A stretch of DNA of 64,000 nt, from the NCBI GenBank assembly GCA_963740355.1, contig CAVUDW010000003.1, forward strand, positions 1,824,001 to 1,888,000. The letters run 5' to 3'. Below are positions 26,765 to 49,866 of the stretch, piece after piece. A program made the position numbers and the translations under genes. The notes under the pieces were generated by a model. That model had not been told where the DNA came from and did no database searches. It was given only the letters and a program-made list of their open reading frames with translations. The DNA is from an uncultured Gemmatimonadaceae bacterium. Lineage in GTDB: Bacteria > Gemmatimonadota > Gemmatimonadetes > Gemmatimonadales > Gemmatimonadaceae. Numbering within the stretch: position 1 is the stretch's first letter; each line of letters starts with the position of its first letter.

Positions 26765-27016
26765 ATGTCCTGGCCTGGCCTCGTCTTGGCGCTCTGCGTG
26801 CGCTGCATTCGCGAACCATCGCTGATCGGGCCGTTGCTGCTGGTCGGGTGGCGGTTCCGGCGGCGGAACTGGTACGCGCGCGCGCCCTTCCTGCCCATTC
26901 CCGCCTGGGAGTATGTGCAGTGGCGCATGCACACCGCGTACGGCGATCATGCGGCCGTACCGCCCGTGGACGACATCGCGAACTACGCGCGGTGGACGTG
27001 GAACCTGCCCACCTGA
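26765..27016 (+). CDS. Small hypothetical protein
   Basis: Clean ORF ending 1 nt before queG; WRMHTAYG motif. Confidence 0.6.
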   Translation: MSWPGLVLALCVRCIREPSLIGPLLLVGWRFRRRNWYARAPFLPIPAWEYVQWRMHTAYGDHAAVPPVDDIANYARWTWNLPT

Positions 27017-27017
27017 C

Positions 27018-28037
27018 GTGACGCTCCAGGCACCCGCCGGCTTTGCGCATCGGTTGAAGGCCGAGGCGTATGCACGCGGGGCGATGTTGGCGGGGATCGC
27101 GCGGCTCGGTCCGATGGAGACCGCAGCCGCATACGACGACTGGATCGCGAAGGGCTATGCCGGCGAGATGGCGTATCTCGATCGCGGCGCCGAGAAGCGT
27201 CGCGATTCGACGTTACCCGTGCCGGGTGCGGTGAGTGCGTTGGTGATCGCGGTCAACTACGGTGGCACGGAGCCGGATGGTCCGGTCGCGCGGTATGCGC
27301 GTGGTGATGACTATCACGATGTGCTGGTGCCGATGTTGCGCGGGATGCAGGACTGGATCTCGTCCGAGCTCGGCAGCGCGGTCGCAGGCAAGGCGTACAC
27401 GGACACCGGGCCGATTCTGGAGCGGGATCTGGCGCGACGTGCGGGGCTGGGGTGGTTCGGGAAGAACACGATGCTCATTTCGCCGAAGCATGGGTCGTTC
27501 TTTTTTATCGGGGTGCTGATGTTGGCGCTCGAGCTCGAGGCGGATGAGCCGTTTGTGGCGGATCATTGTGGTACGTGTACGCGGTGTCTCGACGCATGTC
27601 CGACGGAGGCGTTCGTGGAGCCGCGGGTGATGGATGCGCGGAAGTGTGTGTCGTATTTGACGATTGAGGCGAAGGGGGAGGTGCCGGATCACTTCCGCCG
27701 TCCGATGAGCGGGATGATATACGGGTGTGATATCTGCCAGAGCGTGTGCCCGTGGAACGTGAAGTTCTCGCAGGAGTTGGCGGACGACTCGCCGTTCAAC
27801 ACTCGGGAATTCATTGCCGGGAAGGACGCGGTCACGCTCGCGACGGACATCCTTTCGTGGGAGCCGGAGCAGTTCAGCGCAACGTTCCGTAAGTCGCCGA
27901 TGAAGCGGGCGAAGCTGGCGGGGCTCAGGCGGAATGCGACGGTGGTGCTAAGCAACATAGAGGCCGCCGTAAACGTCCCGCCGCAAGTGCAAGCGTTACC
28001 GGACTACGATCCTGTACTGCGCTCGCACCACGTTTGA
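27018..28037 (+). CDS. queG: tRNA epoxyqueuosine(34) reductase
   Basis: ARYARGDDYH, DTGPILER, GWFGKN, CGTCTRCLDACPT, CVSYLTIE, YGCDICQSVCPWN. Confidence 0.95.
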   Translation: MTLQAPAGFAHRLKAEAYARGAMLAGIARLGPMETAAAYDDWIAKGYAGEMAYLDRGAEKRRDSTLPVPGAVSALVIAVNYGGTEPDGPVARYARGDDYHDVLVPMLRGMQDWISSELGSAVAGKAYTDTGPILERDLARRAGLGWFGKNTMLISPKHGSFFFIGVLMLALELEADEPFVADHCGTCTRCLDACPTEAFVEPRVMDARKCVSYLTIEAKGEVPDHFRRPMSGMIYGCDICQSVCPWNVKFSQELADDSPFNTREFIAGKDAVTLATDILSWEPEQFSATFRKSPMKRAKLAGLRRNATVVLSNIEAAVNVPPQVQALPDYDPVLRSHHV

Positions 28038-28413
28038 GCGCGCACAACGGAGCATGCGCACATTACTCTCGGCGACTACTTGCGAAGCGAAGTGCACAAG
28101 ACAGTGCGATGCGCCCGACGCGCGGCACTGGAGTAGCAGTCAGGACCGGGTCTGTGGAACTCGCTCGAACTGCTCGTGGAGGTGGTCTGTGACGTGCGGC
28201 CCGTTCCGAGGACACCGCGCGCCGACGTTGAGCAGCGGCTCAACGCGAAGGTTGCTTCAGCACAAGGCGTGATGACCATAGAGTTGCTTGATGAAATGCG
28301 ACGCGAGGTAGCGGTCGGCTTTCCGCAACGGGCGCGGCACGCTCTGAGAGCATGCTTCGGCGACGAAGGCAACCACTACTCCCATGTCCTGTTCGACACC
28401 GTGGAACACCGCC

Positions 28414-28833
28414 TCATGTTCGTGCGAACGGCGCGAGATCTGCGAGCGCCAGCCCGGACACCCGACGGAACTCGTTCACGTTCAGCGTCGCTACCTCGCT
28501 GCCCGCTACGAGCGCGGTCGCGGCGATCTGCAGATCGTGCGCGCCGATCAACGCCCCTGCTGCCGCCAGCTCGGTCCAGATCCGTGCGTGCGCGCGTGCT
28601 TCTGCCAGACCGAACGGGATCACCGGTACGTTCTCCAGCACACCCTCGACGAACGCGCTGCGTCGCTGCCGGACGGCGCTGTCACGCGCCCGCTCGACAC
28701 CATGCAGCAACTCGGAGGCGGTGATCGCGGCTACCGCGACAGGGGCGTCACAGAGCGCTGCGAGATAGCCTGGCATGTCGAACGTCCCCCGCTCCGCAGC
28801 AATGAGCACTGCCGTATCGAGGAGGACGCTCAC
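28414..28833 (-). CDS. vapC: PIN-domain toxin (VapC family)
   Basis: LLDTAVLI, TASEL, HDLQIAATAL, TLNVNEF. Confidence 0.9.
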   Translation of the reverse strand: MSVLLDTAVLIAAERGTFDMPGYLAALCDAPVAVAAITASELLHGVERARDSAVRQRRSAFVEGVLENVPVIPFGLAEARAHARIWTELAAAGALIGAHDLQIAATALVAGSEVATLNVNEFRRVSGLALADLAPFART

Positions 28834-28837
28834 CAGG

Positions 28838-29119
28838 TCAGGACCACGGATCGGCCGGCGCTGGAAGCTCGGCGAGCGCCGCACTTATGTCTTCCCCGAA
28901 TGCAGCCGCGTCCGAGGGCGTCAGACGCGGCAACAGCGCCCAGCGATGCGCCAGTTCGGCCGCCGGAATGCCCGATGGCGCCATCGGTGCGACGAAGGCG
29001 ACCGGCACGCCGTTCTTAAGCAATACGGTCGTCTCATGGCGGTAGAACGCCCGATTCACGACGTCGGCGAAGCGGCGGGCGGCGTCGGTAACGGAGAGGG
29101 ACCGGGTCGGACTCGACAT
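28838..29119 (-). CDS. Phd/YefM-family antitoxin
   Basis: SVTDAARRFADVVNR...LLKNGVPVA; immediately upstream of the PIN toxin. Confidence 0.8.
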   Translation of the reverse strand: MSSPTRSLSVTDAARRFADVVNRAFYRHETTVLLKNGVPVAFVAPMAPSGIPAAELAHRWALLPRLTPSDAAAFGEDISAALAELPAPADPWS

Positions 29120-29252
29120 ACACATAATATGATTTTCAGCATACGTCAGCGCAAGCCTCTCTGCGGGACACGCTCGCGCTCAGTGCGGCGGCCTGGAGGC
29201 ACTCGCACTCGCGGGTGCACACCATGCGGCTCACCGGCAGCGTCGCGCTCGA

Positions 29253-31484
29253 TCAGAGCCCCATGGCCCGCAGCAGCTCCGCGTACCGGGGGTGCGCACG
29301 AATCGCATCCGTGGCAAATGGCGGTCGCGTCCACCCGGGGTTCAATGCGTCGCAGCGCTCCACCGATTCGAGTGCGTAGGCGATGGCGTCGTCGACGCGG
29401 CCCAGGTAGCTGGCAGCGATTGCCAGCGCACTGCGCTGAACGGTGTCGACTTCCGCGCGCGCCTGCAGTTCCGCATACGCGGCATCGGCTCGCCGGGCAT
29501 CGCCGTTGATCAGATGCGCCCGTACCAGGAACATCAGGAAGAGCGGATGCCGACCGAACCTGACCAGCATCTCGTTCACCGCCGCAATCGCGGCACTCGC
29601 GTCATCCGAGTTCGTGATTGCAATCGCGCGGCCGTACGCGGCGGTGAAGGAGTCCGCGTCGATTGCCTGCGCACGCTGCGCTTCGGCACGGGCCGCGTCG
29701 GGTTGTCCGGTGAGTGCCAGCACGGCGCTGTGGATGCCGGCGAGGTTGGCACTGAGCGGATCGTCGGCCACGGCGCGTGCGAGTTCCTCGAGGGCCCGCA
29801 CGTCGTCCTGTGCAATGCAGAACAACCCGTTGACGGCGAAGCTGCCACGCACTTCGCTGAGGCGTGGCTGGAGCGCCAGTGCGCGCTCCCACCAGGTGAA
29901 CGCCGCACCGGGATCGTGTTCGATGAACAGGCTGGCGAGCGCCATCGCGCCCATCGCCTCGGCATGTGCGGGGGCCAGCTCGAGGGCACGTGCGAGTGCC
30001 GCCTTCGCCAACGGGTGCCCCTGCGTGACCGACATCAGGCCGTAGCGCACGAAGTTCACCAACGTCTCGCCGAGCAGCGCATGGGCGTCGGCGTTTGACG
30101 GATCGAGACGAATCGCGGCGGCAAAACAATCACGCGCGGCCATCAGGCTGCGCCCGCGCTGCGCGAACAGCGCGCGCCCCTTGGCGACCAGCTCGAACGC
30201 CTCCACCTCGGCCGTCGTGGCCTTCAGCACCGGCTGCGCGGGCGGCACGAACGTGACCTGCAGCCGTGCCGCGATGGCCTGCGCGATTTCGTCCTGCACC
30301 GCAAACACATCCGTGAGTTCGCGGTCGAACCGTTCCGACCAGAGGTGATAGCCGTCAGCCACCGATACGAGCTGCACGGCGATGCGCATGCGATTGGCCG
30401 CCTTGCGCACACTGCCCTGCAGCACCGTGGCGACATTCAGCACCTCCCCGATCTCGGTCAGCGCCACCGCCTTGCCACGGAACGAGAACGCGGAGTTTCG
30501 CGCCGCGACGTGCAGCCCGTCGATCTGGACCAACGCGTCGAGGATATCGTCCGCGATGCCGTCGGCGAAATAGCGGTTGTCGGGCTCGGCGCTGAGGTTC
30601 TCGAATGGCAGGATCGCCAACGATTTGACCGGCGCGGCCGGCGCCTTGGAGCGCGTTTCCCGCTCGTTCAGCGCCGCGATGAACACGGCGGCGGTTTCAT
30701 GGCGATCGACGGCCACGCGCGAGAGGGACTGCTGCACTGCGCGCGAGACTGGTCCCGGCACGCCTTCGCGCAGCGCCGCCACTTCAGGGGGCGTTTGCAC
30801 GAAGCGCTTCGCGATCACGGCCTGTATCGTCGGTCCCGTGAACGGTGGCTCGCCGACTAGCATCTCGTACAGCACGCACCCCAGGCTGTAGAGGTCACTG
30901 CGGCCGTCGACGTCCTCACCCACGGCCTGCTCAGGACTCATGTACGCCGGCGTGCCAACGCTCATGCCCACCTGTGTGAGCGTGTCGCCCGGCGCGTCGT
31001 TGATCGCTTTCCCGATGCCGAAGTCGGCCACCAGCACGTGGCCGTCCTGCAGCATGATGTTCTCTGGCTTGATGTCGCGGTGAATGATGCCGAGGCGATG
31101 CGCGTGCTCGAGTGCACCCGCGACGGCACTCGCGATGCGCACCGCGTCGGCGATGGGTAGCTGGCGCTCGGTCTCGAGGCGATCGCGCAGTGACCGCCCC
31201 TGCACCACCGGCATCACGTAGAACAGGGTGCCGTCTAAATCGCCCGAGTCGTAGAGCGGCAGGATGTGCGGGTGACTGAGCTTCGCAGCGAGCTGGATCT
31301 CACGCAGGAAGCGCTCGCGGCCGACGGTGGCCGCCACGTCGTTTCGCAGGACCTTGATGGCGACGGGGCGGTCGTGCTTCCGGTCGTGTGCGAGGTAGAC
31401 GGTGGCCATGCCGCCCTGACCGAGTTCGCGGTTGAGGCGATAGCGATCGTCGAGGGCCGCAGCCAGGCGATCCAGGGTCGTCAT
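29253..31484 (-). CDS. Ser/Thr protein kinase with TolB-like and TPR domains
   Basis: LGQGGMATVY, VAIK, HRDIKPEN, DFG, GTPAYMSPEQ; SLAILPFENLS module; TPR tail. Confidence 0.92.
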   Translation of the reverse strand: MTTLDRLAAALDDRYRLNRELGQGGMATVYLAHDRKHDRPVAIKVLRNDVAATVGRERFLREIQLAAKLSHPHILPLYDSGDLDGTLFYVMPVVQGRSLRDRLETERQLPIADAVRIASAVAGALEHAHRLGIIHRDIKPENIMLQDGHVLVADFGIGKAINDAPGDTLTQVGMSVGTPAYMSPEQAVGEDVDGRSDLYSLGCVLYEMLVGEPPFTGPTIQAVIAKRFVQTPPEVAALREGVPGPVSRAVQQSLSRVAVDRHETAAVFIAALNERETRSKAPAAPVKSLAILPFENLSAEPDNRYFADGIADDILDALVQIDGLHVAARNSAFSFRGKAVALTEIGEVLNVATVLQGSVRKAANRMRIAVQLVSVADGYHLWSERFDRELTDVFAVQDEIAQAIAARLQVTFVPPAQPVLKATTAEVEAFELVAKGRALFAQRGRSLMAARDCFAAAIRLDPSNADAHALLGETLVNFVRYGLMSVTQGHPLAKAALARALELAPAHAEAMGAMALASLFIEHDPGAAFTWWERALALQPRLSEVRGSFAVNGLFCIAQDDVRALEELARAVADDPLSANLAGIHSAVLALTGQPDAARAEAQRAQAIDADSFTAAYGRAIAITNSDDASAAIAAVNEMLVRFGRHPLFLMFLVRAHLINGDARRADAAYAELQARAEVDTVQRSALAIAASYLGRVDDAIAYALESVERCDALNPGWTRPPFATDAIRAHPRYAELLRAMGL

Positions 31485-31507
31485 GGCGTGCTCGTGCCAG
31501 AGGGTGT

Positions 31508-31921
31508 TCAGCGCGTCGGAACAGGTACAGCCACCACTTCGAGGCCGTCGATCCCGGCAAAGTCATCGGGATTGCACGTGTACACCGGCAGCGCATGCGC
31601 CAGCGCCGTTGCCGCGATCATGGCGTCGTAGGACCGGGCCGCCGTCTTCCGTCCCGACTGCCGGAGTGAGGCAGCCACGCGGCCGAAGGCACGGGCTGCG
31701 CTGGCATCAAAGGGCAGCGCATCGAAATCAGATTCGGCCTGCTGAAGATGCGCCTGTCGCGCCGCGCGCTCCCGATCCGTCGTCGCGACCAGCGGCCCCA
31801 CGGTCAACTCGGCGAGCGTGATCGCGGTGATCAGCGGTTGATCTGGGAGCACCGCTGGATCATCCAGTCGGCCGAGCATGATGACCGTGCTGGTGTCGAG
31901 GATGCCGCGCGCGTGACTCAC
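31508..31921 (-). CDS. vapC: PIN-domain toxin (VapC family)
   Basis: ILDTSTVI, TLAEL, YDAMIAATAL, TCNPDDF. Confidence 0.9.
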   Translation of the reverse strand: MSHARGILDTSTVIMLGRLDDPAVLPDQPLITAITLAELTVGPLVATTDRERAARQAHLQQAESDFDALPFDASAARAFGRVAASLRQSGRKTAARSYDAMIAATALAHALPVYTCNPDDFAGIDGLEVVAVPVPTR

Positions 31922-32166
31922 CCGTCAGCCCACAGTGAGGCGTTCAACACGCGGTCCAGGTCAGCCCGGAGCTGCTGCGCGTCGACAGGCGGCAGCCGGC
32001 GCCACCGCTGGAGCAACGTGGCCGCTGTGAGCCCGCGCCCCGGAATGGGGCGCAGCTCGGCGATAGGTTGGCCGTCCATCGTGACAGTGAGCGTCTCGCC
32101 GCCGGCGACGCGCTGCAGGACTCGGCCACCGTTATTGCGGAGTTCTCGGACGGAGATGTTGTCCAT
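31918..32166 (-). CDS. Phd/YefM-family antitoxin
   Basis: ISVRELRN...VAGGETLTVTMDGQPIAELRP; overlaps the toxin start. Start 32166 or 32181. Confidence 0.85.
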   Translation of the reverse strand: MDNISVRELRNNGGRVLQRVAGGETLTVTMDGQPIAELRPIPGRGLTAATLLQRWRRLPPVDAQQLRADLDRVLNASLWADG

Positions 32167-32261
32167 TCCGGATTGTATCACGCGTGAGACGGCGAGGCAA
32201 GCGTGGTTGTTTTTCGGCCGGTCTCCAGCCCGATCTCAAAACGGGTATACCGACACAGCTC

Positions 32262-32445
32262 CCAGAGCGTGTGCCCGTGGAATGTGAAGTTCACGACCGA
32301 GCTGCGTGAGCCGGCGTTTGCGCCGTGCGACCTCGTCGCCGAGCGCGCGTCGCGCGACGACTCGCGAGCGCTGGCGCGCGAGATCCTGATGATGGAGCCG
32401 GTCGACTAAGCGAATACGTTCAAGGGTAGCGCCATCACGCTCGCA
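32262..32445 (+). pseudogene. queG: queG 3' fragment A
   Basis: First 31 nt match queG 27737-27767 at 30/31; reads QSVCPWNVKFTTELREPAF...LAREILMMEPVD*ANTFKGSAITLA. Confidence 0.9.
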
Positions 32446-32535
32446 GCAGGGATCGCGCGCGGCATCTTCCGCCAATTTCCATGCGGGCGGCGGCGAGTAT
32501 GCGCGCCAGCGACTGGAGGATGCGAACGCGGGAGT

Positions 32536-34725
32536 CTACTTCCAGCGATATCGGAGGGCCACGTTCGCCATGAACCCTTCCAGCGGCGCCCAGACGTCGG
32601 TCGTCCACCGGCCACCCATGCCCCTCGTACGTCGTACCAAGGAGTCAGTATCCGTCTGCCGCACGTTGAGCAGGTTCTCGAAATTGGCCACCAGCTCGAC
32701 GGGTCCAAACTGCTTCGCCGCGATGGCCATCATGTACACGTAGGGCTTCGACGTGGTGCGGAAGGGATTGTCATCGAGAGGCTGTGCGCCAAACCACGTG
32801 CCTTCAATGCCCATGCGATAGACACCGGGGCGCTCGAGCATCAGATCACCGCCCACGCGATGACGCGGCAGCAGCGGCATCGCTTCGCGCGTCCCCGTGA
32901 ATGCATCGGGCCGACTGCCCCGGGAGTAGCCGTAGTTCGCGATGAACTTTCCGCCGGAGAAGCGCCAGACCGCGAGCGTTTCGATGCCGCCGACGCGCGT
33001 GCGCGCTGGGGCATTCTGTAGCAACGTCTCCCCTGCCGTCCCCACCCCGTCAGTCAGTTGCACGGCATCGGCGATGCTCGAGCCATACACGGTGAGCAGG
33101 ACTTCAGCCCGGAGCAGCGTGCCGTTGATGTCCAGCATCGCGCCGAGACTGCGTTCGGGATCGAGCGGTTGCGTCACGCGGACACCACGTAGCCCAGTCG
33201 CCTCCGTCTCTTCAGTCCGTCCAGTCAGTGCCGCGTACCCGTTGCCAACACTGCCGCGCACGGTCCATCCCTCCACTGGACGCGCGAGCAGCGCCACGCG
33301 CTCCGTGAGCTGCAGCCCCGCGTCGGGATGTGCGTCGGCGCGAACACTCGCGGAGACCGTCACGGGGCCGACGCCGCGTTCTGCCGTCACGAAGGCACCG
33401 GGAATGACCCAGCGATGATCGAACGTCGCGTTCAGTACGTTTTTGTAGTTGTCGAGCTGCACGACGCTGCCCAGCACGACTGCGCGCCGCTCCGCATCGA
33501 AGGCGCGCGTGACCTCGAGGAACCCTGTCGTGGTCTCGTCGTCCTCGCGTGCGCCCGGGCCGAACGCCCGCGCCCTCGCGCTGCCTGCAACGGCGAACCG
33601 CATCGACAGGCTGCCGCCCTTCATCGGAAGACGTGCTGTTCCGCCGATGTCGGCGCGCGTGCTGCGAAGCGCTTCGCGAAACGGCGTCCCATCCGGTGCG
33701 TTCGCCCCGCCGACGGTGCCGCCGACCCGATCATCGTATCCGACGCCCACCGTGAGGAACAGCGACCTCCCACGCGAGTCAACCGCGTGCAGTCGTGGAC
33801 GCAGGCTCCACCGCGACGCGCGCGATTGGTCCGCCCAGCCGTCGTCGTCGATGTCCTGCGCCGCCTGCGTCGTGCCGGCTGCAAGCAGCGACACACCAAC
33901 GCCCCTGCCGAAGCGATGACTGAGCCACGTCGCGCCGTCGGTCACGCCCAGCGTGCGGCGATTGAGCAGCAGCTCGTTCTGCCCGGTGGGTGGCTTCGAC
34001 ACCATGTTGATCACGCCACCCAACGCCTGTCCGCCGTACAGCGCCGACGCGGCGCCCTTGATGATCTCGACGCGCTGCAGATCGACCGGCGAGATGTCGA
34101 GCGGGCCCAACGCGCTCGCGCTGGCGCCATAGAGCGGCAACCCATCGGCGAGCATGACGGTGTACTGGCCCGGCAGTCCGAGAATACGCACGCTTCCCGT
34201 GCCCAGTCCGGGCGCTGCCGCCTGCACACGCAGCCCTGGCGTTTCGTTGAGCAGCATGCTGATGCCGCTGGGAGACATCAGCGTCTTCTCGTCGACTTCC
34301 ATCTCGTCGACGACTTCGACGCGGATCGGCGATGCACCGGCCAGACGTTCGATGCGCGTCGCGCTCACGCGCACCTCCGGCATTTGCATGGCCATCTCGC
34401 CCATTGCCGTGTTGCTCATGGTCGCGGTCACGATGACGGTGACTAGGCTATCGCGAACCACTCGCGTGGTGAGGCGGATGGGGGCGAAACCGATGCGCGT
34501 GACGGTGATGAGATGGCTTCCGACTGGCAGCACGAGCCGTGCAACGCCAGCGCTATCGCTCACGGCGCTCCGCCCGACCGACTGCACGAGAAAGCCCGCG
34601 ATCATTCCCATGGATTCCTGCACGGTGACGTGGACGCGTCCACTGTCGGCTTGCTGGCCGGAGAGCGGCGTGGCGCCAACGAGCAACGCGACAATGGCGA
34701 GCAGAGCGAGCAGTCGGTGCGTCAT
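32536..34725 (-). CDS. TonB-dependent receptor
   Basis: Signal peptide; plug LNETPGLRVQ and RVEIIKGAASALYGGQALGGVIN; FENLLN near the C terminus. Confidence 0.9.
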   Translation of the reverse strand: MTHRLLALLAIVALLVGATPLSGQQADSGRVHVTVQESMGMIAGFLVQSVGRSAVSDSAGVARLVLPVGSHLITVTRIGFAPIRLTTRVVRDSLVTVIVTATMSNTAMGEMAMQMPEVRVSATRIERLAGASPIRVEVVDEMEVDEKTLMSPSGISMLLNETPGLRVQAAAPGLGTGSVRILGLPGQYTVMLADGLPLYGASASALGPLDISPVDLQRVEIIKGAASALYGGQALGGVINMVSKPPTGQNELLLNRRTLGVTDGATWLSHRFGRGVGVSLLAAGTTQAAQDIDDDGWADQSRASRWSLRPRLHAVDSRGRSLFLTVGVGYDDRVGGTVGGANAPDGTPFREALRSTRADIGGTARLPMKGGSLSMRFAVAGSARARAFGPGAREDDETTTGFLEVTRAFDAERRAVVLGSVVQLDNYKNVLNATFDHRWVIPGAFVTAERGVGPVTVSASVRADAHPDAGLQLTERVALLARPVEGWTVRGSVGNGYAALTGRTEETEATGLRGVRVTQPLDPERSLGAMLDINGTLLRAEVLLTVYGSSIADAVQLTDGVGTAGETLLQNAPARTRVGGIETLAVWRFSGGKFIANYGYSRGSRPDAFTGTREAMPLLPRHRVGGDLMLERPGVYRMGIEGTWFGAQPLDDNPFRTTSKPYVYMMAIAAKQFGPVELVANFENLLNVRQTDTDSLVRRTRGMGGRWTTDVWAPLEGFMANVALRYRWK

Positions 34726-34784
34726 GTGTGAACGTTAGCAGCCGTCAGCAACTCGCGGCTCGTGGCACGATCCCGCCTCCCGTG

Positions 34785-34881
34785 TCGCAGAATCTTTCAC
34801 GGACTCGCCGTTCCGGGCGCGATCGTTTTTGGACGGGAAAGACGCGCTGACGCTGGCGATGCCGCGGTGGTGCTGGAGAAC
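34785..34881 (+). pseudogene. queG: queG 3' fragment B (internally deleted)
   Basis: DSPFRARSFLDGKDALTLA joined to AAVVLEN; queG has DSPFNTREFIAGKDAVTLA...NATVVLSN. Confidence 0.75.
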
Positions 34882-35157
34882 TCGAGCAGGGAGCGCCCGG
34901 CGGCGCGCATGGTCTGGCGTTCTGGGTTCAGAATCGAGGAACGATCATGGACCCTGACCGCATGGCTTCGACGGGCATGCTGCCGGACTACCCGTCAACC
35001 ATGGACCCGGGCAATACCGTCGCAAGTGACTAGGAATGTCCTATTCGTCGTGTTCGCCATGCGGCGAATTCCGTATGGGCGCAGCACCTAGGCTGGCGGC
35101 GTCATACGAAAGAATCGCTAGCTTTCGTCGCATGACGCTTCCACACGCCAGCGCCCA

Positions 35158-36096
35158 ATGAGCGCCGGCCTCCTCGCACTCGTCGACGATCTCACCGCCC
35201 TCGCCAAGCTCGTCGCATCCTCCGTGGACGATGCCGCAGCGCAGGGCAGCAAAGCCATCGGCAAGGCCTCGGGCATCGTGATCGACGATGCCGCCGTGAC
35301 GCCACGTTACGTGATCGGATACGCGGCCGACCGTGAACTGCCGATCATCGCGAAGATCGCCAAGGGTTCGCTGGTCAACAAGCTGGTGATCCTGACGCCG
35401 GTCTGCCTGCTGCTGAACAGACTGGCGCCATGGCTGCTGACGCCGCTGCTCATGCTCGGCGGCCTCTATCTCGCCTTCGAAGGCTACGTGAAGGTGATGG
35501 AAATGGTACGAGGCAAGACGGTGACGACCGCTTCCGCAGCGGGTACGACGGCGGAGACTGGCGCCGCATCCGAAAAGGCGAAGGTCGCCGGCGCCGTGCG
35601 CACCGACTTCATCCTGTCGGCCGAGATCATGGCCATCACGCTCGCGACCGTGGCCACGGCGCCGTTCGTGACGCAGGTAGTCGTCCTGGTGCTCGTGGGC
35701 ATCGGCATGACTGTGCTGGTGTACGGCACCGTGGCGCTGATCGTGAAGGCCGACGACTTCGGCGCCTATCTCGCGCAGACGGGCAGTGGTGCCGCGCGCG
35801 CACTCGGTCGCGGTATCGTGGTCGGGATGCCGAAGCTGCTGGCCGCGCTCGGCTTCGTCGGCATGCTGGCGATGCTCTGGGTCGGTGGCGGCATCATCAC
35901 GCACGGCCTGCATGAACTCGGCGTGCATGGGCCGGAGGAGTTCGTGCAGCACCTCGGCGCGCTGGCAGGCGGCGCGGTGCCTGCGATGGCGGGTGCCGTG
36001 TCCTGGCTCGTGACGGCCGCAATCTCCGCCGTCATCGGTCTCGCGCTCGGCGCGATCGTCTCACCGATCGGACACAGGGTGCTGCCGGCGCACTGA
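35158..36096 (+). CDS. DUF808 family inner-membrane protein
   Basis: GLLALVDD, GIVIDDAAVTP, RELPII, GAVRTDFILSAEIM, AMLWVGGGI. Confidence 0.88.
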   Translation: MSAGLLALVDDLTALAKLVASSVDDAAAQGSKAIGKASGIVIDDAAVTPRYVIGYAADRELPIIAKIAKGSLVNKLVILTPVCLLLNRLAPWLLTPLLMLGGLYLAFEGYVKVMEMVRGKTVTTASAAGTTAETGAASEKAKVAGAVRTDFILSAEIMAITLATVATAPFVTQVVVLVLVGIGMTVLVYGTVALIVKADDFGAYLAQTGSGAARALGRGIVVGMPKLLAALGFVGMLAMLWVGGGIITHGLHELGVHGPEEFVQHLGALAGGAVPAMAGAVSWLVTAAISAVIGLALGAIVSPIGHRVLPAH

Positions 36097-36123
36097 CGTC
36101 GCGCGCTGTTTGTTCTCAGCGTC

Positions 36124-36380
36124 AGAACTTGCGGGTGTAGCCGACACGAACGACCTGCCTCTCCAGGCAGTCGGTGCGCAGCAGTTGAAAGTTCGTCAAG
36201 CGGATCGTGCGTCGCCTGATTCGTGTTCAGCACGTCAGTGGCGTTGACCACGATCTCACCCTTGCCACTTTGTACCGAGACTTTCGCTCGAAGATCGCGC
36301 GAAAAGCGGCTGCCGATGCGGCCCTGCGGCAGCAGGTCCGGCGCGAGATACTCGCCCGACACCTGCGCTTGCCTGTCATG
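36124..36380 (-). pseudogene. Frameshifted C-terminal remnant of an outer-membrane beta-barrel/TonB-type receptor
   Basis: YLAPDLLPQGRIGSRFS...GKGEIVVNATDVLNT, then in another frame RQVVRVGYTRKF*; no 5' part. Confidence 0.6.
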
Positions 36381-36400
36381 GGGCAGTCGCAACACGGGCG

Positions 36401-36553
36401 CGGGAGTTCATCGCGGAGAAAGACTTGCGCACGCTGGCGCAGGACATCCTCGCGCCGGATCGGGAGCAGTTCAGCGCGGCGCTCCGGAAGTCACCGATGA
36501 AGCGGGCGATATTGGCTGGATTGCGGCGGAATGCGGCTTTGGTGGTCACCAAC
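36401..36553 (+). pseudogene. queG: queG 3' fragment C
   Basis: REFIAEKDLRTLAQDILAPDREQFSAALRKSPMKRAILAGLRRNAALVVTN, collinear with queG 27804-27956. Confidence 0.92.
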
Positions 36554-36905
36554 GATGCCGAACGGTGACGTTCGTCAGGCGCGACCCATTCTCGTGGCCT
36601 GAAGTCATTGCGCCAGTGATGGTTTCCGTGTGAGCGCGGCCGGACGAGACGTCACCACCGGGCACGCGGGAATGCGTGCGTCAGACCGGCTGACACGGTT
36701 TCCACGACGCTCCGAGTCAAGTCGCAGACCCCACGCTACGTGGCCAACCGGTCGAGGCCGTCTTCGCCCGCGAGAGAATACGCCTCCATGACGCGGAGCA
36801 GGAACTTTGTACTGAAACTTCCGTACGTCATGCCACGCGTGACCCATCCGACAGGCAGCCTCTTTGTCACACTCGACGTCGTCTCCTCTCTCACCCGACA
36901 GCCCG

Positions 36906-38135
36906 ATGACCATCAGCATGCTCGTCCGGTCTTTGATCGCCGCGGCGTTATTCGCACTGCCCGCCGTTGCTCAATCGTCGAGAGCACGTTCGGACGGGCG
37001 AGTGGAAATTTCGATCAACTCGACTGTGCTCGGTGCGAGTCGACGCGTCATTCTCGCGCCACCATACGGCGGAACGAGTACCGAGGCGCATGCGGTGCTG
37101 CTGCTGCTCGACGCGGATGACGAGCCGCAGTTCAACGCCGCTGTCGCGAACATCCGCTTCCTCGAGGATCGTGGAGCGATCCCGCGGCTGCTCGTTGTGG
37201 GTATTCCGAATGGTGCGACGCGCAATCGAGACCTTGCCCCCGCAGCAACCATGCAGACAAATGTCGCAGATCCGGCATTACGCGAGGGCCCGGAACGTTT
37301 CGCTCGCTTCCTCGAGTCGGAGGCGCTGCCCGCAGTACGCGCGAGGTTTCGTACCCTTCCGTACACGGTCATTGCCGGACACTCGCTTGGCGCGCTCTTC
37401 GTATTGCAGCTGATCGCGAACCGACCCGGACCCTACGCAGCGGCGATTGCGATGAGTCCGTCGCTGTGGTGGAGCAATGGCGCGCTCGGTGCGCCGTTCG
37501 CCGATGCCATCAAGCGTCTGCGATCGCCGTTTCGCTTATTTGTGTCGAGTGGTGCGTTCGAGCCGCGCATAGACAAGCCGACGCAGCAGTTCATCGCGAC
37601 ATTGGAATCCAACCCACCATTGGGTTCGCTCGACTTTCGGTCGCGACACTACCTGGACGACTCTCACGCTCTCACACCGCTCGTGAGCCTGACTGACGGG
37701 CTACGCTTCATCTTCGAACCGATCGGCTTGGCCGTCAGCGCGATGAACAAGCTTGACGGCGAGTCCGATTCCACGAGCATCGTCACGGCATTCTCCGGCG
37801 TGACGAAGCGCTACTCGGCCGGCGCAAGGGCAATCGGCCTGGATACGTTGCTCCCGGAGTCCTTCGCCCTCCAATCGGGCGCGTCCGTGCTGCGGAATAT
37901 GCAGAAGCCTGGCGCCGCGCGTGTCATTCTCAACTGGGCCGTGCAGGCCTATCCTCAGTCTGCCGCCGCCCACGAAACGTTCGCCGACGCGCTGGTAGCC
38001 GCTGGTGACACTTTGCTGGCCCACACGGAATACGCGCGAGCGATCGTGCTCGCGAGTGCTGCCGGCGATTCGTCGGTCAGTGGCATTCGCGCCAAGCAGC
38101 GCGCCATCAAGCAACCGGTTCCACCGCCCCGCTGA
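36906..38135 (+). CDS. Secreted alpha/beta hydrolase (IroE/Fes-like esterase) with TPR-like tail
   Basis: Signal peptide; RNRDL, GHSLG, SPSLWW. Confidence 0.85.
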   Translation: MTISMLVRSLIAAALFALPAVAQSSRARSDGRVEISINSTVLGASRRVILAPPYGGTSTEAHAVLLLLDADDEPQFNAAVANIRFLEDRGAIPRLLVVGIPNGATRNRDLAPAATMQTNVADPALREGPERFARFLESEALPAVRARFRTLPYTVIAGHSLGALFVLQLIANRPGPYAAAIAMSPSLWWSNGALGAPFADAIKRLRSPFRLFVSSGAFEPRIDKPTQQFIATLESNPPLGSLDFRSRHYLDDSHALTPLVSLTDGLRFIFEPIGLAVSAMNKLDGESDSTSIVTAFSGVTKRYSAGARAIGLDTLLPESFALQSGASVLRNMQKPGAARVILNWAVQAYPQSAAAHETFADALVAAGDTLLAHTEYARAIVLASAAGDSSVSGIRAKQRAIKQPVPPPR

Positions 38136-38172
38136 TTCGCGACACGATTCGTCGCAGGCAGCAGCAGCCAGT

Positions 38173-38232
38173 CCCCTGGAACGCGCACATCAGAAGAACG
38201 CGCACATGTCCAGCGCGACGCCGTAGTCGCCG
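38173..38232 (+). pseudogene. Possible highly eroded queG 3' fragment D
   Basis: CCCTGGAAC (PWN) and GTCCAGCGCGACGCCGTAGTCGCCG versus queG GTTCAGCGCAACGTTCCGTAAGTCGCCG. Confidence 0.4.
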
Positions 38233-38428
38233 CGCATTGCAGCACCCCAGAAGCCGAGCGAGGTGCGCCCGTATGCGCATCGATGCGGTTTCGTGGCGCG
38301 AAAGGGGAGTGCGCCGTGATCCCTCGAAACTTTGGCGCCCCGTAGCCACGCACGCACGTCGGCCTACGGCTCGCAACGACCCACTCGTCCCGTGCGGCGT
38401 CCGTGTCGCCCCTTCGCGGTGACACCGA

Positions 38429-38980
38429 TTGCCGCGCGCACCTACGTTCGGCGCATCCCCAACCCCGAACAGGAGCGCATCATCATGCCCACTGCTATGG
38501 ATCGTCACCATCGTCGCGCGTGCGAGGCTCTCGGCGGTGTCCGGTGCCGCGCTGGCCGCCACCCTGCTGGCAGCTGGGACGGCGCGAGCGCAGTCGACAC
38601 GGTCACTGGCCGTTACGCGCCCCGCGCAGGCCGCTGCAGATACGACCATTCTTTCGAGCGGCCCTGACCTGCAGGGGCTCTGGGACTTCGCAATGCGCGT
38701 AGGCGACCGACCGTCCACCGGCTTCTTCGCGCTCGGCCCCGTCGAACGGGGATGGGCTGGCTCGCTCACGCCATACCTCACGAACACGCTGGCGATCCGC
38801 CTGCTCACCGTGGACGGGGACTCGGTGCGGATGGTCGTTGCGTCGCGGGAGGGCGATGTGCGATTTCATGGGCGGCTGACCGACAACGGACGCACGATGG
38901 AAGGCATCGTGGACTATCACGGCGGCGTGCGCGTTCCGATGACGGCCACGCGCCGCGCCCAGCCTGTCGCGCCACGCTGA
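38429..38980 (+). CDS. Hypothetical secreted protein (start uncertain)
   Basis: Signal-like ALAATLLAAGTARAQ; beta-rich domain; upstream of LytS/LytTR. Confidence 0.55.
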   Translation: MPRAPTFGASPTPNRSASSCPLLWIVTIVARARLSAVSGAALAATLLAAGTARAQSTRSLAVTRPAQAAADTTILSSGPDLQGLWDFAMRVGDRPSTGFFALGPVERGWAGSLTPYLTNTLAIRLLTVDGDSVRMVVASREGDVRFHGRLTDNGRTMEGIVDYHGGVRVPMTATRRAQPVAPR

Positions 38981-38990
38981 GCCCAGCCGC

Positions 38991-40199
38991 ATGAGCGGAA
39001 TGGCCGTCCCCAATGCCCTTGATCGCACCGAGTCCCTCCCCGGATACTCAAAGGTGACGACACGCGCGCAAGAACTGGGGGATGTCGGCTCTTCGGAGTC
39101 GGCCACGGAGCGGCGTATCGTCCCGGTGGGGGCCGTCGTGCTGACGACGTTCTTTGCCCTGCTCTACGGGCTGCGCGGCAGCATCGCGGCCCTCGACCGT
39201 GGCGAGGATCCGCGCTGGGCGCAGCAGGTCGGCTGGTCACTCGCCATGTGGTGGACCTGCCTGCCACTGCTACCGCCGCTGGCGTCCCTCGTCCACCGGT
39301 TCCCGGTGGGACGCCCGCATCCGTGGAGGAACGCCGGCATCCTGCTGCTCGGCACGGCGACGGCCGCCTGGCTCCGGCACGTTGTGATGACCCCGGTCGT
39401 GGTGGCGATCACCGGTGTCCCCGACGTAGCGGCGAGCGCTGCCGCGCGGACTCTCACGTACTTCACCGTCTTCCTCGTGATGGTCGCGCTCCTCCACGCC
39501 TCTCACTACTACCGCGCGGAACGAGCCCGTGCAGTGCGCGAGGCAGCCCTTGCCCGAGGGCTCGCCGAGGCGCGGCTCGCCGCGCTGCGGACGCAACTGC
39601 ATCCGCACTTCGTCTTCAACGTGCTCAATGCGGTCACGACCCTCCTGCACGCCGACCCGATGGCGGCCGACCGAATGCTGACCCGCTTCGCGGCTCTATT
39701 GCGCGAGATACTGCACGAGGGGGCAGAAGAGCACGCGCTCGAGCGCGAGCTCGAGTTGTTGGCGCGCTACGTCGAACTGATGCAACTGCGTTTCGGTGAC
39801 CGCATCGTCGTGGAATGGGCCGTGGCCGATGCACCACTCGGCGCACGCGTGCCCTTTCTGGTCTTGCAGCCGCTGGTCGAGAACGCCTACGAACACGGGC
39901 TTGGCGGACGGGAAACGGGCGGACGCGTGCAGATCAGCGCGACACGCGCGGGCGACAGGCTTGAACTCGTCGTCGAGGACGATGGCGCGGGTCTCAGCGC
40001 TGAGGCAGGGTCGATCATCGGTCGAGGGAATGCGGAAACGGGTACTGGTATCGGCCTGCGCAACACGCGCGATCGCCTCGTGCAGCTCTACGGCGCGCAC
40101 GCCTCACTCGTGCTGGAGCGACCGTCGGATGGCGGTACGCGCGCGCGGGTGACGCTGCCGTTGATCGATGGACCGCACAGAAACGGGGCGCATCCATGA
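38991..40199 (+). CDS. LytS/YehU-family sensor histidine kinase
   Basis: TM helices; QLHPHFVFNVLN, LQPLVENA, VEDDG, GIGLRN. Confidence 0.9.
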   Translation: MSGMAVPNALDRTESLPGYSKVTTRAQELGDVGSSESATERRIVPVGAVVLTTFFALLYGLRGSIAALDRGEDPRWAQQVGWSLAMWWTCLPLLPPLASLVHRFPVGRPHPWRNAGILLLGTATAAWLRHVVMTPVVVAITGVPDVAASAAARTLTYFTVFLVMVALLHASHYYRAERARAVREAALARGLAEARLAALRTQLHPHFVFNVLNAVTTLLHADPMAADRMLTRFAALLREILHEGAEEHALERELELLARYVELMQLRFGDRIVVEWAVADAPLGARVPFLVLQPLVENAYEHGLGGRETGGRVQISATRAGDRLELVVEDDGAGLSAEAGSIIGRGNAETGTGIGLRNTRDRLVQLYGAHASLVLERPSDGGTRARVTLPLIDGPHRNGAHP

Positions 40200-41113
40200 A
40201 CGAACCGACGCGCGATCGGCGCGCGAGTCTTGCCGCCGAAAATCGAGGTTCCTGGAAGGTGCTGATTGCCGATGACGAGCCCCTCGCGCGCGCGCGCCTG
40301 CGTGCGCTGCTTGCGCGACATCCCGAGTTCGAGCTCACGGCGGAATGCGGAAGCGGCGCGGCGGTTCTCGCTGCGCTCCGCAACGGCCCCGCCGATGTGC
40401 TGCTCCTGGACATCCGCATGCCCGGCCTCGATGGCATCGCGACGGTGGAGGCTCTTGCCCAGGAAGCGCCATGGTCGGTGGAGCGGCCCCCATGCGTCGT
40501 CTTCGTCACGGCGAGCGAGGAGCACGCGATCCGTGCATTCGATCTGGATGCGGTCGACTACCTCGTGAAGCCGGTCGACATCGATCGCTTCGATCGGGCG
40601 ATGCGGCGACTGCTCGAGACGCTCGGGTCACCGTCCCACGCCCCCGATGCCGCAGCCATCGCGGCGGCCGATGCGGCGCTTCGGGGCGCGCTGCAGGCCC
40701 TGCATGGCGACGCGCCCGCGCCAGCCAGCGGCATCGCCGGGGGCTCCGCCTCCCACGCACGAACTGGGGCCGTATCGGAGGACAGGTATGCGAAGCGATT
40801 CGTGATCCGCGACGCGCGAGGGATGCATTTCGTGGCCGTCGCGGACGTCGACCGTGTCGAGGCGGAGGGCAACTACGTGGCGGTCTTCGCCGCGGGGCGA
40901 CGGCATCTCGTGCGTGAGTCGCTCAATGCCATCGCATCGCGGCTCGACCCGGCGGAGTTTGTGCGGGTGCATCGGTCGCATGTCGTACGGATCGACCGGA
41001 TTCGCCGCCTGGAACCCTGTGGCCATGGCGAGTACGACCTCACGCTGGGAGACGGCACCCGACTGACCTCGAGCCGGAGCTATCGGGAGCAAGTACGGCG
41101 ACTGCTCCGCTGA
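40196..41113 (+). CDS. LytTR-family response regulator
   Basis: IADDEPLAR, LLDIRMP, DYLVKP, FVRVHRS. Confidence 0.92.
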   Translation: MNEPTRDRRASLAAENRGSWKVLIADDEPLARARLRALLARHPEFELTAECGSGAAVLAALRNGPADVLLLDIRMPGLDGIATVEALAQEAPWSVERPPCVVFVTASEEHAIRAFDLDAVDYLVKPVDIDRFDRAMRRLLETLGSPSHAPDAAAIAAADAALRGALQALHGDAPAPASGIAGGSASHARTGAVSEDRYAKRFVIRDARGMHFVAVADVDRVEAEGNYVAVFAAGRRHLVRESLNAIASRLDPAEFVRVHRSHVVRIDRIRRLEPCGHGEYDLTLGDGTRLTSSRSYREQVRRLLR

Positions 41114-41209
41114 CGGAAGCGCGAGCCATGCTGCGAAATGCCGTGGGCATCACACGATGACGCGGTCGTCAGAAGACACGCGGGACCCGTGTCGGGACGC
41201 GGCAGCCGC

Positions 41210-41296
41210 GAGCTCAGCGCGGCGTTCCGGGAGTCACCGATGAAGCGGGCGAAGTTGGCGGAGCTCAGGCGGAATGCGGAGGTCGTACTCACCAAT
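41210..41296 (+). pseudogene. queG: queG 3' fragment E
   Basis: ELSAAFRESPMKRAKLAELRRNAEVVLTN, collinear with queG 27870-27956. Confidence 0.9.
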
Positions 41297-41383
41297 GCCG
41301 AGGCATGATCACGACGAAGTGAGACCGCCGGGGCTGCATGCATCGCCGCGCGCACCATGACGCTCGCCGCAACGGTCTGTCAT

Positions 41384-41779
41384 TCACAGCGACAAAGGAA
41401 CGAGTCGTGCGCGAATCCAGTCGGCCAGCAGCGCCTCCGTGACTTCTCCTCCCGCCAAGGCGACCATCATCTGCACCACATCCACCTCGGTCGCAGACAG
41501 CTCCTTCCCATTGAGTCCGAGGAAGGCCATCATCGTGACGAAAGCAGTGCGCTTGTTCCCATCGCTGAATGGATGCGCGCGCGCGAGTCCAAAGGCATAG
41601 GCTGCCGCCAGCGAGGCAAGGTCGGATGCCGGCTCGTAGGACCACTGCTGCCGTGCACGAGCAAGCGCGTCCTCGAGAGCGTTCTCGTCCCGGACGCCGG
41701 CGAGCCCTCCGTGCTCCCGCAGCTGATCGAGATGGATGGAATCCACGACGATACGCGGCACCCAGCGGGGCTCTCGCAT
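41384..41779 (-). CDS. doc: Doc (death-on-curing, Fic-family) toxin
   Basis: HGGLAGVRD, HPFSDGNKRTA. Confidence 0.92.
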   Translation of the reverse strand: MREPRWVPRIVVDSIHLDQLREHGGLAGVRDENALEDALARARQQWSYEPASDLASLAAAYAFGLARAHPFSDGNKRTAFVTMMAFLGLNGKELSATEVDVVQMMVALAGGEVTEALLADWIRARLVPLSL

Positions 41780-41788
41780 GACGCCGGT

Positions 41789-42016
41789 CTACTTGGCCAG
41801 CTCGCGCAACGCGTTGCGGTATTTCTTCGCCGCATGGGCCGCGACCGCGAGTCCAGCCTCGACGTCGGGATCGAACGGTGTCAGGAGAATCCCCTGTGCA
41901 GTCTCGATGGCGAGTACGCGGTCGCCCGCCTCGAGGTGGAGGCGGTCGGCCATATCCTTCGGGATGGTCGCACCAATCGACCCGCCCACCTGGCGCAGTG
42001 TCAGTTCACGGACCAT
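41789..42016 (-). CDS. AbrB/MazE-like antitoxin
   Basis: LRQVGGSIGATIPK, LTPFDP, YRNALRELAK; upstream of doc. Confidence 0.85.
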   Translation of the reverse strand: MVRELTLRQVGGSIGATIPKDMADRLHLEAGDRVLAIETAQGILLTPFDPDVEAGLAVAAHAAKKYRNALRELAK

Positions 42017-42221
42017 CGGTACACCCGCATCATCGGGATTACACCAGAGATTATCGCCAGAACGAAAGTAGCATTATTATGCTACCGATGCAAGCACGCC
42101 CTGCCGGCAGCGTGAGAACGCAGAGAGTGAGGCAATCATCACACCGCGACGGCGTCCGCCGACGGACGGTCCGGGCTCCTACGTTGAGCGGGATCTCAAA
42201 ACGGTTATGCCGACACATCGC

Positions 42222-42420
42222 CCAGGCCGTCTGCCCGTGGAGCATGAAGTGCTCGCAGGAACTGGCGTAGGACTTCACGTTCCGGGAGCGGGCGTTCATC
42301 GCAGGGAAGGATGTCGAGACGCTGGCGTCAGACATCGTGGCGCTGGACCAGAACGTGTTCAGCGCGGCCTTCCGGAAGTCGCCGATGAAGCGGGCGATGC
42401 TCGTTCGGTTGCAGCCCAGT
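42222..42420 (+). pseudogene. queG: queG 3' fragment F
   Basis: QAVCPWSMKCSQELA*DFTFRERAFIAGKDVETLASDIVALDQNVFSAAFRKSPMKRAML; in-frame TAG at 42268. Confidence 0.92.
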
Positions 42421-42484
42421 GTCACGCGCCGGCTGTACCCTCGCCACAGCTCCGTGCGACGTCATGGACAGCGCGCGTCACCTG

Positions 42485-46900: not shown

Positions 46901-47072
46901 TCGCGCCGTCATGCGCGGCGACCAACGATTCGAGCTCGGCGCGGAACGCTGCGTCGGACCCGTACGTCGTCGCGAGGTACGAGGCGCGCTGCGACGTCGG
47001 CAACGAGATGACGAGCTCGAACGCGCTGCTCAACCGCTCCCAGCTCGCGCGAGCCTCTGGCGGTTCAACCAT
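43926..47072 (-). CDS. Membrane Ser/Thr protein kinase with TPR domain (ECF-associated)
   Basis: IGSGGAGIVY, VAIK, HGDIKPAN, LLDFG, GTLPYLAPE; TM segment; start overlaps the ECF stop. Confidence 0.9.
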   Translation of the reverse strand: MVEPPEARASWERLSSAFELVISLPTSQRASYLATTYGSDAAFRAELESLVAAHDGATAFLDELHADIIQPALAHDDLRDTQSPDHDAPRTDVVAPGDRIRHFVVHERIGSGGAGIVYRGRDTLLERDVAIKVLAPSVSGDAVARARLVREAQAASRLDDPHVCAIYAIESTADGALCIVMAFCAGGTLRDRLRSGLLTLDDVMTIANHLARGLASAHHAGIVHGDIKPANVGFGEGDVARLLDFGVAVHEHEAASLSGQGLIGTLPYLAPELWRGAPRSARADVWALGVTFFEMVTGRRPFTGADPETLAAAIIDGPLPPLARLDGTTPTPAFAAVIRRMLSAAPDDRPADGAAVLAALQAMPGTTVPVRDVQLPPDSEAARSLPTSAHRTRGVRTPLVALTVAAALAGAAWWTRRTPAAGVSPPAVEVVRTDEPLPTLAILPFSTRGGSDIAYLREGMVDLLTPAFDGTGLVRGIDPNTIIGAAGTDGATTLDSADARALAVRVKAHRYVVGSLVKSGRMLSFRASLRSIDGREIGRAFAAVDDTASLARGVDAIVRQLIASALLAPADTVAGIAAATTSSSRALRAFLDGERELRDARPAAAVENFQQAVAADSQFALAWYRLARAARWNEVESLSSSAAQRAYDLASTLPPRQQALIRAYHDLRFGSPTAAERRLAQMVRDYPTDVEAWMLLGETQFGSNPYRGRSIQDAGKAFQSVMALDPRNREVTVYLMDLAAKANRLGQLDTLYSMYFSPNSAGEQPGIRAAYMALYRRRIAGAPANTLPVDLRDDPAIARVGLQRIGNDLRDRSAARAYANTMAAAPTPDTRAEGLRALAALDVADGNWVAASSRFRIAEGLDPARGVDDRAFFALAPSVTIAVDSLRSLRNELLTRRVTPVDAGSGLTGREQRDVREYLLGMLSIRISDSTGLAGALRALATRSATPSRVAAPLLAALTGHRMLRGGDVAGALGAFQQAMLDLPTSLRARHPVLSQYPERLALADCLHRSGRSSESREWYRALLEGPGVTGVPFAAAAAAGQRGSGGS

Positions 47073-49727: not shown

Positions 49728-49866
49728 CCGACTGGAGATGCAGCCCGGTGAAACCAACGGCGTCGCGTGGGCTCACGGAGACGATTCGCGTGTGAGCGGC
49801 GGTCAGCAGCGGGAGTCGTCGTCACTCGAATTCCGGATACGCACGAGACGCCGTAGCTTGTAATGC

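Follow-up and report, generated by a model that had tools for sequence, protein, structure and literature searches.

A queG-linked large serine recombinase and arrays of displaced queG gene ends in Gemmatimonadaceae: a probable attachment site

Sequences and locus

A stretch of 64,000 nucleotides (nt) from an uncultured, soil-type Gemmatimonadaceae bacterium (assembly GCA_963740355.1, 5.45 Mb; contig CAVUDW010000003.1, positions 1,824,001 to 1,888,000) was analysed for queG, the gene of epoxyqueuosine reductase, for the partial copies of its 3' end lying downstream, and for a recombinase found beside queG in related genomes. This whole stretch is called the window, and coordinates refer to it unless a contig or locus is stated. 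The genome is designated G000; other G numbers are related genomes, Cn after a colon is a contig, and L numbers are fetched loci.

The queG gene (26913..28037, + strand) is intact and encodes 374 amino acids (aa), as judged by its translation and by matches to Pfam Fer4_16 and QueG_DUF1730. Its last ~100 codons form what is here called a type-1 tail, without a HEAT_2 match in Pfam. Junction tables place a resident recombination site of attB type (B-B') at 27714..27763 (+). The central CA of this site is located at 27738-27739, within the codons for ...GCDIC-Q-SVCPWN, and the site marks the point from which displaced tails resemble queG.

Displaced queG tails in the analysed genome

The 374-aa QueG was compared with the whole G000 assembly using tBLASTn. 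Tail pieces were confined to the 15 kb downstream of queG, all on the same strand: A at 32230-32460, C at 36401-36553, D at 41210-41305 and E at 42217-42426, with B weak near 34785-34881. The sole other match with E < 1e-3 was an Fe-S-domain paralogue on contig C2 (aa 167-283), which does not represent a tail. A DNA profile (nhmmer), built from 54 units of related genomes and comprising a 45-nt upstream arm and a 231-nt tail, was run over both strands of the 5.45 Mb. Six matches were obtained genome-wide, all on the + strand between 27730 and 42417 of the window, namely the resident queG tail (27730-27957, E 7e-63) and five displaced tails; E values extend to 2.5e-10, and the next-best match had E 0.09. 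The original prediction, made from the letters of the window, had listed these five co-oriented 3' ends and expected them to cluster only downstream of queG, and both searches bear this out. It had also listed a faint sixth copy at 38173-38232, which gave no match in tBLASTn or the DNA profile and shows merely a PWN-like triplet.

The five displaced units, all on the + strand, differ in what they retain. Unit A (32210..32460; nhmmer 32210-32403, E 5e-26, model 2-186; also tBLASTn) holds tail aa ~274-340 of a different allele type, with one stop; its arm spans 32210-32262, carries the arm motif with two mismatches and is followed by CA at 32263. Unit B (34785..34881; nhmmer 34785-34874, E 2.5e-10, model 85-176) is an internal piece, aa ~286-311 by translation. 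Unit C (36395..36554; E 4e-37, model 115-274; tBLASTn 71%) is a 5'-truncated type-1 tail of aa 298-348, and unit D (41210..41305; nhmmer 41211-41297, E 6e-20, model 188-274; tBLASTn 75%) is the last ~30 codons of a type-1 tail. Unit E (42172..42426; nhmmer 42172-42417, E 3e-60, model 4-249; tBLASTn 59%) holds type-1 tail aa 274-343 with one stop, and its arm (42172-42222, again two mismatches) precedes CA at 42223. Arms are therefore kept only by A and E, whose joints are of the P-B' (attR) type; B, C and D have lost their 5' portions. Because of these truncations and the single stops in A and E, which agree with the earlier description of copies bearing stops or deletions, the G000 array was judged to be decaying.

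In a tree of 96 rows, fragment A has a long branch and resembles the tails of other genera, as expected of the different allele type ascribed to it. Fragment E falls inside the large type-1 clade (support 100/98), yet not beside the resident tail of G000.

Joints, arms and tails in related genomes

The tail query matched all 41 related genomes searched. Matches numbered 1-27 per genome in the 19 other genomes of the genus (19/19), 1-4 in five genomes of other genera of the family, and one each in 16/16 genomes of two sister families. Most fragments in the arrays of G009, G015, G016, G019 and G021 start at QueG residue 274 and are preceded by a conserved arm that is not part of queG, reading ...ATCTCAAAACGGTTATACCGACAC ATCTCC|CAG in the five arrays and in loci from a GTDB pattern scan, or at the DNA level of the joint …GAGCgggATCTCAAAACGGTTATACCGACAC ATCTCC|CAG… in the arrays of the five relatives. 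Displaced tails have TCC where every resident gene has a Cys codon (TGY), which places the joint directly after the second base of that codon. The next two bases, CA (codon ~275, the Gln of ...C-Q-SVCPWN), are common to all sites.

A pattern spanning the joint was found at 118 loci of the GTDB genome collection, nearly all labelled Gemmatimonadaceae or Gemmatimonadales and some Longimicrobium; a few lie in bins that bear unexpected labels and, by gene content, look gemmatimonadotal. Across 15 array stretches, 70/70 units are on the strand of queG (52 arm-bearing units, 10 resident tails and 8 units with a truncated 5' end), with a median spacing of 3.9 kb (range 0.2-34.7 kb). Among 54 cassettes, per-site diversity over the last ~20 nt of the arm is ~0.04-0.32, on average ~0.1, compared with 0.29 at third codon positions of the tail and 0.70 in unconstrained sequence further upstream. 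Since these ~20 nt are more conserved than synonymous tail positions, the arm is regarded as a selected site. No credible family was found for the arm in an Rfam scan of 10 loci, and consensus folding of 113 arms on either strand gave no structure, single sequences forming small hairpins only.

The tails evolved as coding sequence. An open frame over 74 codons is kept in 100 of 115 motif-selected tails, a set biased toward well-kept copies, and across the 1653 pairs formed by 58 intact type-1 tails the ratio of nonsynonymous to synonymous divergence (dN/dS) has a median of 0.27. These values point to purifying selection and to displaced tails that were once working gene ends. Resident tails are scattered among displaced ones in the tree. 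The original prediction had asked whether cargo between the fragments varies among strains, and it does differ between species. A block of PIN, Phd, arm and tail is the first unit in G000 and G016 and the second in G015, and G015 and G014:C37 share a cassette of 4.15 kb at 88% identity that has different neighbours in the two and is followed by different tails. Cassette mosaicism is thus real.

Some units, here called solo units, consist of the arm and only the first ~45-90 nt of a tail (G009 array 44098-44188 and 66726-66812; G016 array 49734-49822 and 54469-54564; G015 array 15793-15853). They may mark the minimal site or reflect 3' deletions.

A large serine recombinase linked to queG

In G009 a large serine recombinase (LSR) gene follows queG directly in convergent orientation (PF07508; phrog_95 'integrase', E 2e-40). 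It opens a 34-kb element that ends in the common arm and a displaced tail. Searches of 20 genomes of the genus and 301 genomes of the order yielded six full-length orthologues, 44-100% identical and spread over five genera. Each of the six stands ~120-140 nt behind a full-length queG and is convergent with it; LSR paralogues (≤34% identity) are not near queG. The LSR elements of G178 (27 kb) and G111 (23 kb) likewise end in arm and tail, and further cassettes without a recombinase follow them. The elements have little in common besides the LSR and a small upstream open reading frame (ORF) of 80-117 aa, which is conserved, has no Pfam match and is a candidate directionality factor. C-terminal LSR stumps stand behind displaced tails in G005:C77 and G014:C37.

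The absence of any recombinase noted in the original prediction is correct for the G000 array and does not extend to relatives, where a queG-specific LSR occupies the site. No recombinase family was matched by Pfam in window 22-49 kb, and the G000 genome gave no match to PF07508, PF00239 or the LSR homologues. A scan of metagenome contigs for the LSR confirmed nothing, and a PDB sequence search with it gave no match.

Serine integrases use attP sites whose half-sites are mirror images around a central dinucleotide. The arm was compared around CA with the reverse complement of the LSR-linked tail start, and the two agree at 21/24 positions in G111, 18/24 in G178 and 14/24 in G009, where the arm has a 1-nt gap. 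Compared with the displaced, non-recoded right half, the agreement is 16 (G111), 14 (G178) and 7 (G009) of 24. ATGG is present in both halves of the G111 site; the others have ACGG. The higher symmetry arises because PWNVK has become P(Y/F)N(R/H)K in the resident tails beside an LSR (6/6), a recoding seen in none of the 12 LSR-less resident tails compared and likewise not in G005:C60. The LSR-linked tails form their own clade (99/94), apart from the type-1 clade. The relatives possess both an LSR-bearing element and two inverted half-sites around a central dinucleotide; no such element was found in G000. The sites of recombinase-less type-1 cassettes agree at 10-15 of 24 positions and are not palindromic.

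Several minor observations concern these genes. The open frame of the G009 LSR runs antisense through the entire queG tail and ends exactly at the crossover site (L016:8622-9036, -), probably an artefact of a GC-rich frame. Beside that LSR, a 191-aa ORF (L016:10754-11326, -) is 80% identical to the N-terminal catalytic part of the LSR, has a weak Resolvase match, and is either a partial duplication or a small partner resembling DsiA or CcrA. A HEAT_2 match is missing from the type-1 tails that G000 and 10 further genomes of the genus have as resident tails; these stop near aa 350 with a variable stub (window 27950-28037 and the resident tails of relatives). HEAT_2 is retained in LSR-linked and Longimicrobium tails. 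QueG of the genus may function without most of the C-terminal HEAT domain.

Interpretation of the arrays

We propose, with a probability of about 0.68, that queG is the attB of integrative elements of Gemmatimonadota that carry this LSR, that recombinase-less cassettes accrete behind it, and that the G000 array is a relic of the process. The ~50-bp site, with the CA of the ...C-Q-SVCPWN Gln codon at its centre, would be the chromosomal attachment site. Each element would supply the final ~75-100 queG codons from a copy that it carries, so that insertion would rebuild the gene and push the old tail downstream, where it would be preceded by the right-end arm of the element, the presumed P half-site of the recombinase. 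Repeated insertions, together with recombinase-less blocks that have arm and tail joints and resemble cis-mobilizable elements (CIME), would build a co-oriented stack, whose cargo is rich in toxin-antitoxin (TA) pairs, kinases, receptors and regulators. In G000 the resident site is of the unoccupied (attB) type, and past accretion would be partly inherited and partly reshaped by deletion. The precise joints, the shared orientation of all 70 units and the dN/dS of 0.27 uphold the earlier proposal that queG is a serial, site-specific acquisition hotspot with a replacement tail for each incoming block. That interpretation was right in substance and is partly supported; the model closest to the data is serine-recombinase accretion, not an integron.

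The joints, the arms, the linkage of LSR and queG and the palindromic attP are direct observations; the LSR would also be the enzyme behind the joints of recombinase-less cassettes. Such cassettes may have entered by trans-mobilisation or by co-transfer with LSR elements, or may have arisen by decay. Non-recoded sites may remain usable, as hinted by the native right half, which mirrors the arm at 14-16 of 24 positions, and by left ends in G005:C77 and G014:C37 that bear an LSR and a non-recoded tail and that later insertions displaced.

A number of observations weigh against the proposal. Canonical recombination of attP with attB cannot yield a series of P-B' joints with a B-B' site in the resident gene, because one integration consumes attB. 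The ancestral-looking tail A is the nearest to queG in G000 and not the last, and the order of tails does not fit a simple series in which the newest stands next to queG and the native tail comes last. The LSR family is rare: Pfam Recombinase is found in 3/20 genomes of the genus, and the LSR query matches 9/301 genomes of the order. There is no intact LSR in G000, in G016 or in the richest arrays (G005, G019, G012), many of these assemblies being fragmented metagenome-assembled genomes. LSR stumps were found in 2 of ~120 cassette flanks, and therefore most cassettes are not obviously decayed LSR elements; neither of the two displaced tails that bear stumps is recoded. The conserved arm, at ~45 nt, is longer than a typical half-site. 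Neither an excised circle nor an empty-site pair was observed.

A broader possibility, doubtful at present, is that the system is a serine-recombinase counterpart of the integron, in which an LSR acting in trans captures, stacks, excises and shuffles recombinase-less cassettes without limit. A cassette circle (P-B') recombining with the resident site (B-B') would then regenerate a usable target each time, because every site has a queG-like right half and the native sequence persists in non-recoded cassettes. If true, this would explain the up to 27 tail matches per genome as well as the displaced LSR-bearing left ends of G005:C77 and G014:C37.

Alternative explanations

The type-1 cassettes may have been moved by another enzyme, the LSR elements being merely a second user or parasite of the hotspot and its arm. 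This is consistent with the lack of the LSR in most array-bearing genomes, the separation of type-1 tails (100/98) from LSR-linked tails, the non-palindromic type-1 sites (10-15 of 24) and an arm that exceeds the length of an LSR half-site. Against this stands the arm itself: the arms of cassettes and LSR elements belong to one sequence family, and the P' half of the LSR's own site is the mirror of that arm. Tyrosine recombinases are absent from the arrays of four relatives, the 25 PF00589 matches in five genomes all lying outside. Clustering of 781 flank ORFs revealed no hidden recombinase and no recurrent gene without a known family; large clusters were TA modules or off-frame ORFs, and the recurrent TA families comprised Doc, PIN, DUF4160/DUF2442, helix-turn-helix (HTH) with DUF6036, and a winged-HTH and nucleotidyltransferase pair. 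An IS91-type Y2 transposase was rejected as the mover, its fragments beside a few tails being sporadic and degenerate. A separate mover is accordingly judged unlikely.

IS91-type Y2 genes or fragments (PF04986, PF14319) do occur just downstream of some displaced tails (L088:1110-2684, L053:3624-4286 and L038:2-634, all -), and such fragments, mostly broken, are present in 9/20 genomes of the genus.

A host integron integrase or XerC/XerD could in principle have built the array in the manner of an integron or of integrative mobile elements exploiting Xer (IMEX). G000 does encode XerC, XerD and an IntI (TIGR02249, 386 bits against a cut-off of 265), and the cassettes resemble those of integrons, and IMEX, in having no recombinase. 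The sites of these enzymes, however, are unrelated to the arm. IntI has at least 12 classical attC sites of its own (GCCTAAC...GTTAGGC) 480 kb away; the arms have no attC boxes at the joint, which lies ~15 nt from the arm's only GTT-like motif, and no consensus fold emerged for the arms. The candidate dif, ACTTCTTATAAGAAGTATTATGTAAACT (C2:2388982), resembles neither the arm nor the queG site. We consider this explanation very improbable, and the integron analogy of the original prediction gives way to a closer one, serine-recombinase or CIME-like accretion.

The integron itself is a classical chromosomal one outside the window (L155:217-10244, equal to G000:C3:2334217-2344244), with intI at L155:9144-10244 (-) and the at least 12 attC sites, of ~97 nt, at L155:217-7783. 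Its cassette ORFs are on the strand of intI, an unusual orientation.

Local tandem duplication, homologous recombination of the queG 3' end or an assembly artefact, which the co-orientation of repeats close to their parent gene and short-read contigs unable to bridge cassettes might suggest, is hardly credible, because the copies begin at one defined nucleotide, a single CA joint, after a non-queG arm and a Ser codon (TCC) in place of the Cys codon, differ in allele type, diverge as coding sequence, and recur in independent assemblies (19/19 other genomes of the genus match the tail) and in arrays of three further genera (G021, G111, G178), so that the earlier doubt about recent tandem duplication was well placed.

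Public reads were also inspected for the array. Fifteen runs contain ≤0.24 of the words. Contigs of four runs were short pieces only, some identical to the window, and no contig bridged a cassette; joints in read contigs connect homologous positions of tails, neither side exceeding 47 nt.

Relation to known systems

The ssrA islands of Dehalococcoides are the nearest described case. These islands stand in tandem behind a gene present once per genome, and direct repeats of its 3' end, a dozen or more per strain, delimit them; just upstream of each repeat is a conserved motif that does not align with the gene (McMurdie et al. 2011, PMC3146451). The integrase DsiB, a serine recombinase of 540 aa, is encoded on the reverse strand beside attL; an integration module is present in 16 islands and missing from 15, which are read as cis-mobilizable elements (PMC3146451). 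Gene-end repeats, a motif before the repeat, a reverse-strand serine recombinase and units without a module closely match the queG arrays. However, ssrA is an RNA gene with a 20-bp repeat and a six-gene module, whereas queG is protein-coding, with a ~230-300 nt coding tail of divergent alleles, and its LSR is accompanied only by a small conserved ORF and, in G009, by a partial serine-recombinase copy. The queG system also differs in that part of the LSR site lies in recoded codons, in phylum, and in a far higher share of recombinase-less units.

The staphylococcal cassette chromosome (SCC, including SCCmec) is inserted by the large serine recombinases CcrAB or CcrC at the 3' end of rlmH (orfX), a conserved RNA-modification gene. 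Composite and pseudo-SCC elements occur; tandem composites are bounded by repeated integration-site sequences, and some units lack a recombinase. The queG system shares with SCC the LSR cassettes in the 3' end of an RNA-modification gene; unlike it, SCC replaces few codons, uses CcrA and CcrB pairs and forms short arrays.

ICESt1, ICESt3 and CIMEs at fda of Streptococcus thermophilus reportedly arose through accretion by site-specific recombination (work attributed to Pavlovic, 2004). They share with the queG arrays the 3' end of a protein gene and tandem att-bounded elements without a recombinase, and differ in their tyrosine integrase, in being conjugative and in having only one or two CIMEs. 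Integrons resemble the queG arrays in ordered, co-oriented, promoter-less or TA-rich cassettes without a recombinase and in one entry site, but their recombinase is of the tyrosine type, their attC sites are folded and they supply no gene tail. Tycheposons of Prochlorococcus are said to build islands that include units with cargo alone and partial target-gene copies left behind by the elements; unlike the queG arrays, they are understood to use tRNA targets and mainly tyrosine recombinases.

No description of queG or the epoxyqueuosine reductase gene as an attachment site or serine-recombinase target was found in the literature searches made, and a search on genomic islands and integrases of Gemmatimonadota gave nothing on queG arrays by title or abstract. 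Features new to this system are queG as the target, the phylum, a long coding tail that exists in several alleles, a half-site with recoded codons, and the size of the arrays.

Mobile elements of Gemmatimonadota are barely described, and the queG arrays explain a major variable region of these soil and sediment genomes. A recombinase family, its chromosomal site, the site on the element and the crossover dinucleotide could all be defined from sequence alone. By rewriting two codons of the donated tail, the element made its own site palindromic, an example of how an att site can evolve while it must also encode protein. Should capture in trans be the source of the recombinase-less cassettes, the arrays would represent a second, mechanistically independent route to integron-like stacking and a serine integrase that does not use up its target when it integrates, with a bearing on directionality in these enzymes.

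Cargo of the analysed array

The cargo identities of the original prediction were confirmed by Pfam. Cargo 1 (28417..32181, -) comprises PIN (28417-28884), a Ser/Thr kinase with TPR (29256-31484), PIN (31511-31921) and Phd (31921-32181). Its 28458-29136 part matches cargo in G015 that abuts an arm, and its PIN and Phd are 93/90% identical in aa sequence to those of G016 and G015; it looks like two former cassettes fused, with the junction lost near 29136-29256. Cargo 2 is a TonB-dependent receptor (32539..34725, -; Plug, TonB_dep_Rec_b-barrel). Cargo 3 (35158..36395) contains DUF808 (35158-36093, +) and a remnant of an outer-membrane beta-barrel (35769-36395, -); the DUF808 gene is 93% (nt) and 94% (aa) identical to a bounded cassette of G016, compared with ~80% for core flanks. 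Cargo 4 (36864..41110, +) carries an esterase (36864-38132), a LytS-type histidine kinase (38991-40196) and a LytTR response regulator (40196-41110). Cargo 5 (41387..42016, -) encodes a Doc toxin (41387-41779) and an AbrB/MazE antitoxin (41792-42016), 91/97% identical in aa sequence to a G019 cassette. These G000 cassettes are CIME-like, containing only cargo by Pfam and being bounded by tails with or without arms.

Window 49759-50443 is 89% identical to cargo between two units of the G019 array. Because of this resemblance, the G000 island may extend at least 7 kb past fragment E, with its junctions lost. A 1058-aa Ser/Thr kinase bearing TPR repeats and an extracytoplasmic function (ECF) sigma factor (PF07638) form a pair at 43929-47874. 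The pairing of kinase and ECF sigma factor, and many kinases, recur as cargo in the arrays of relatives.

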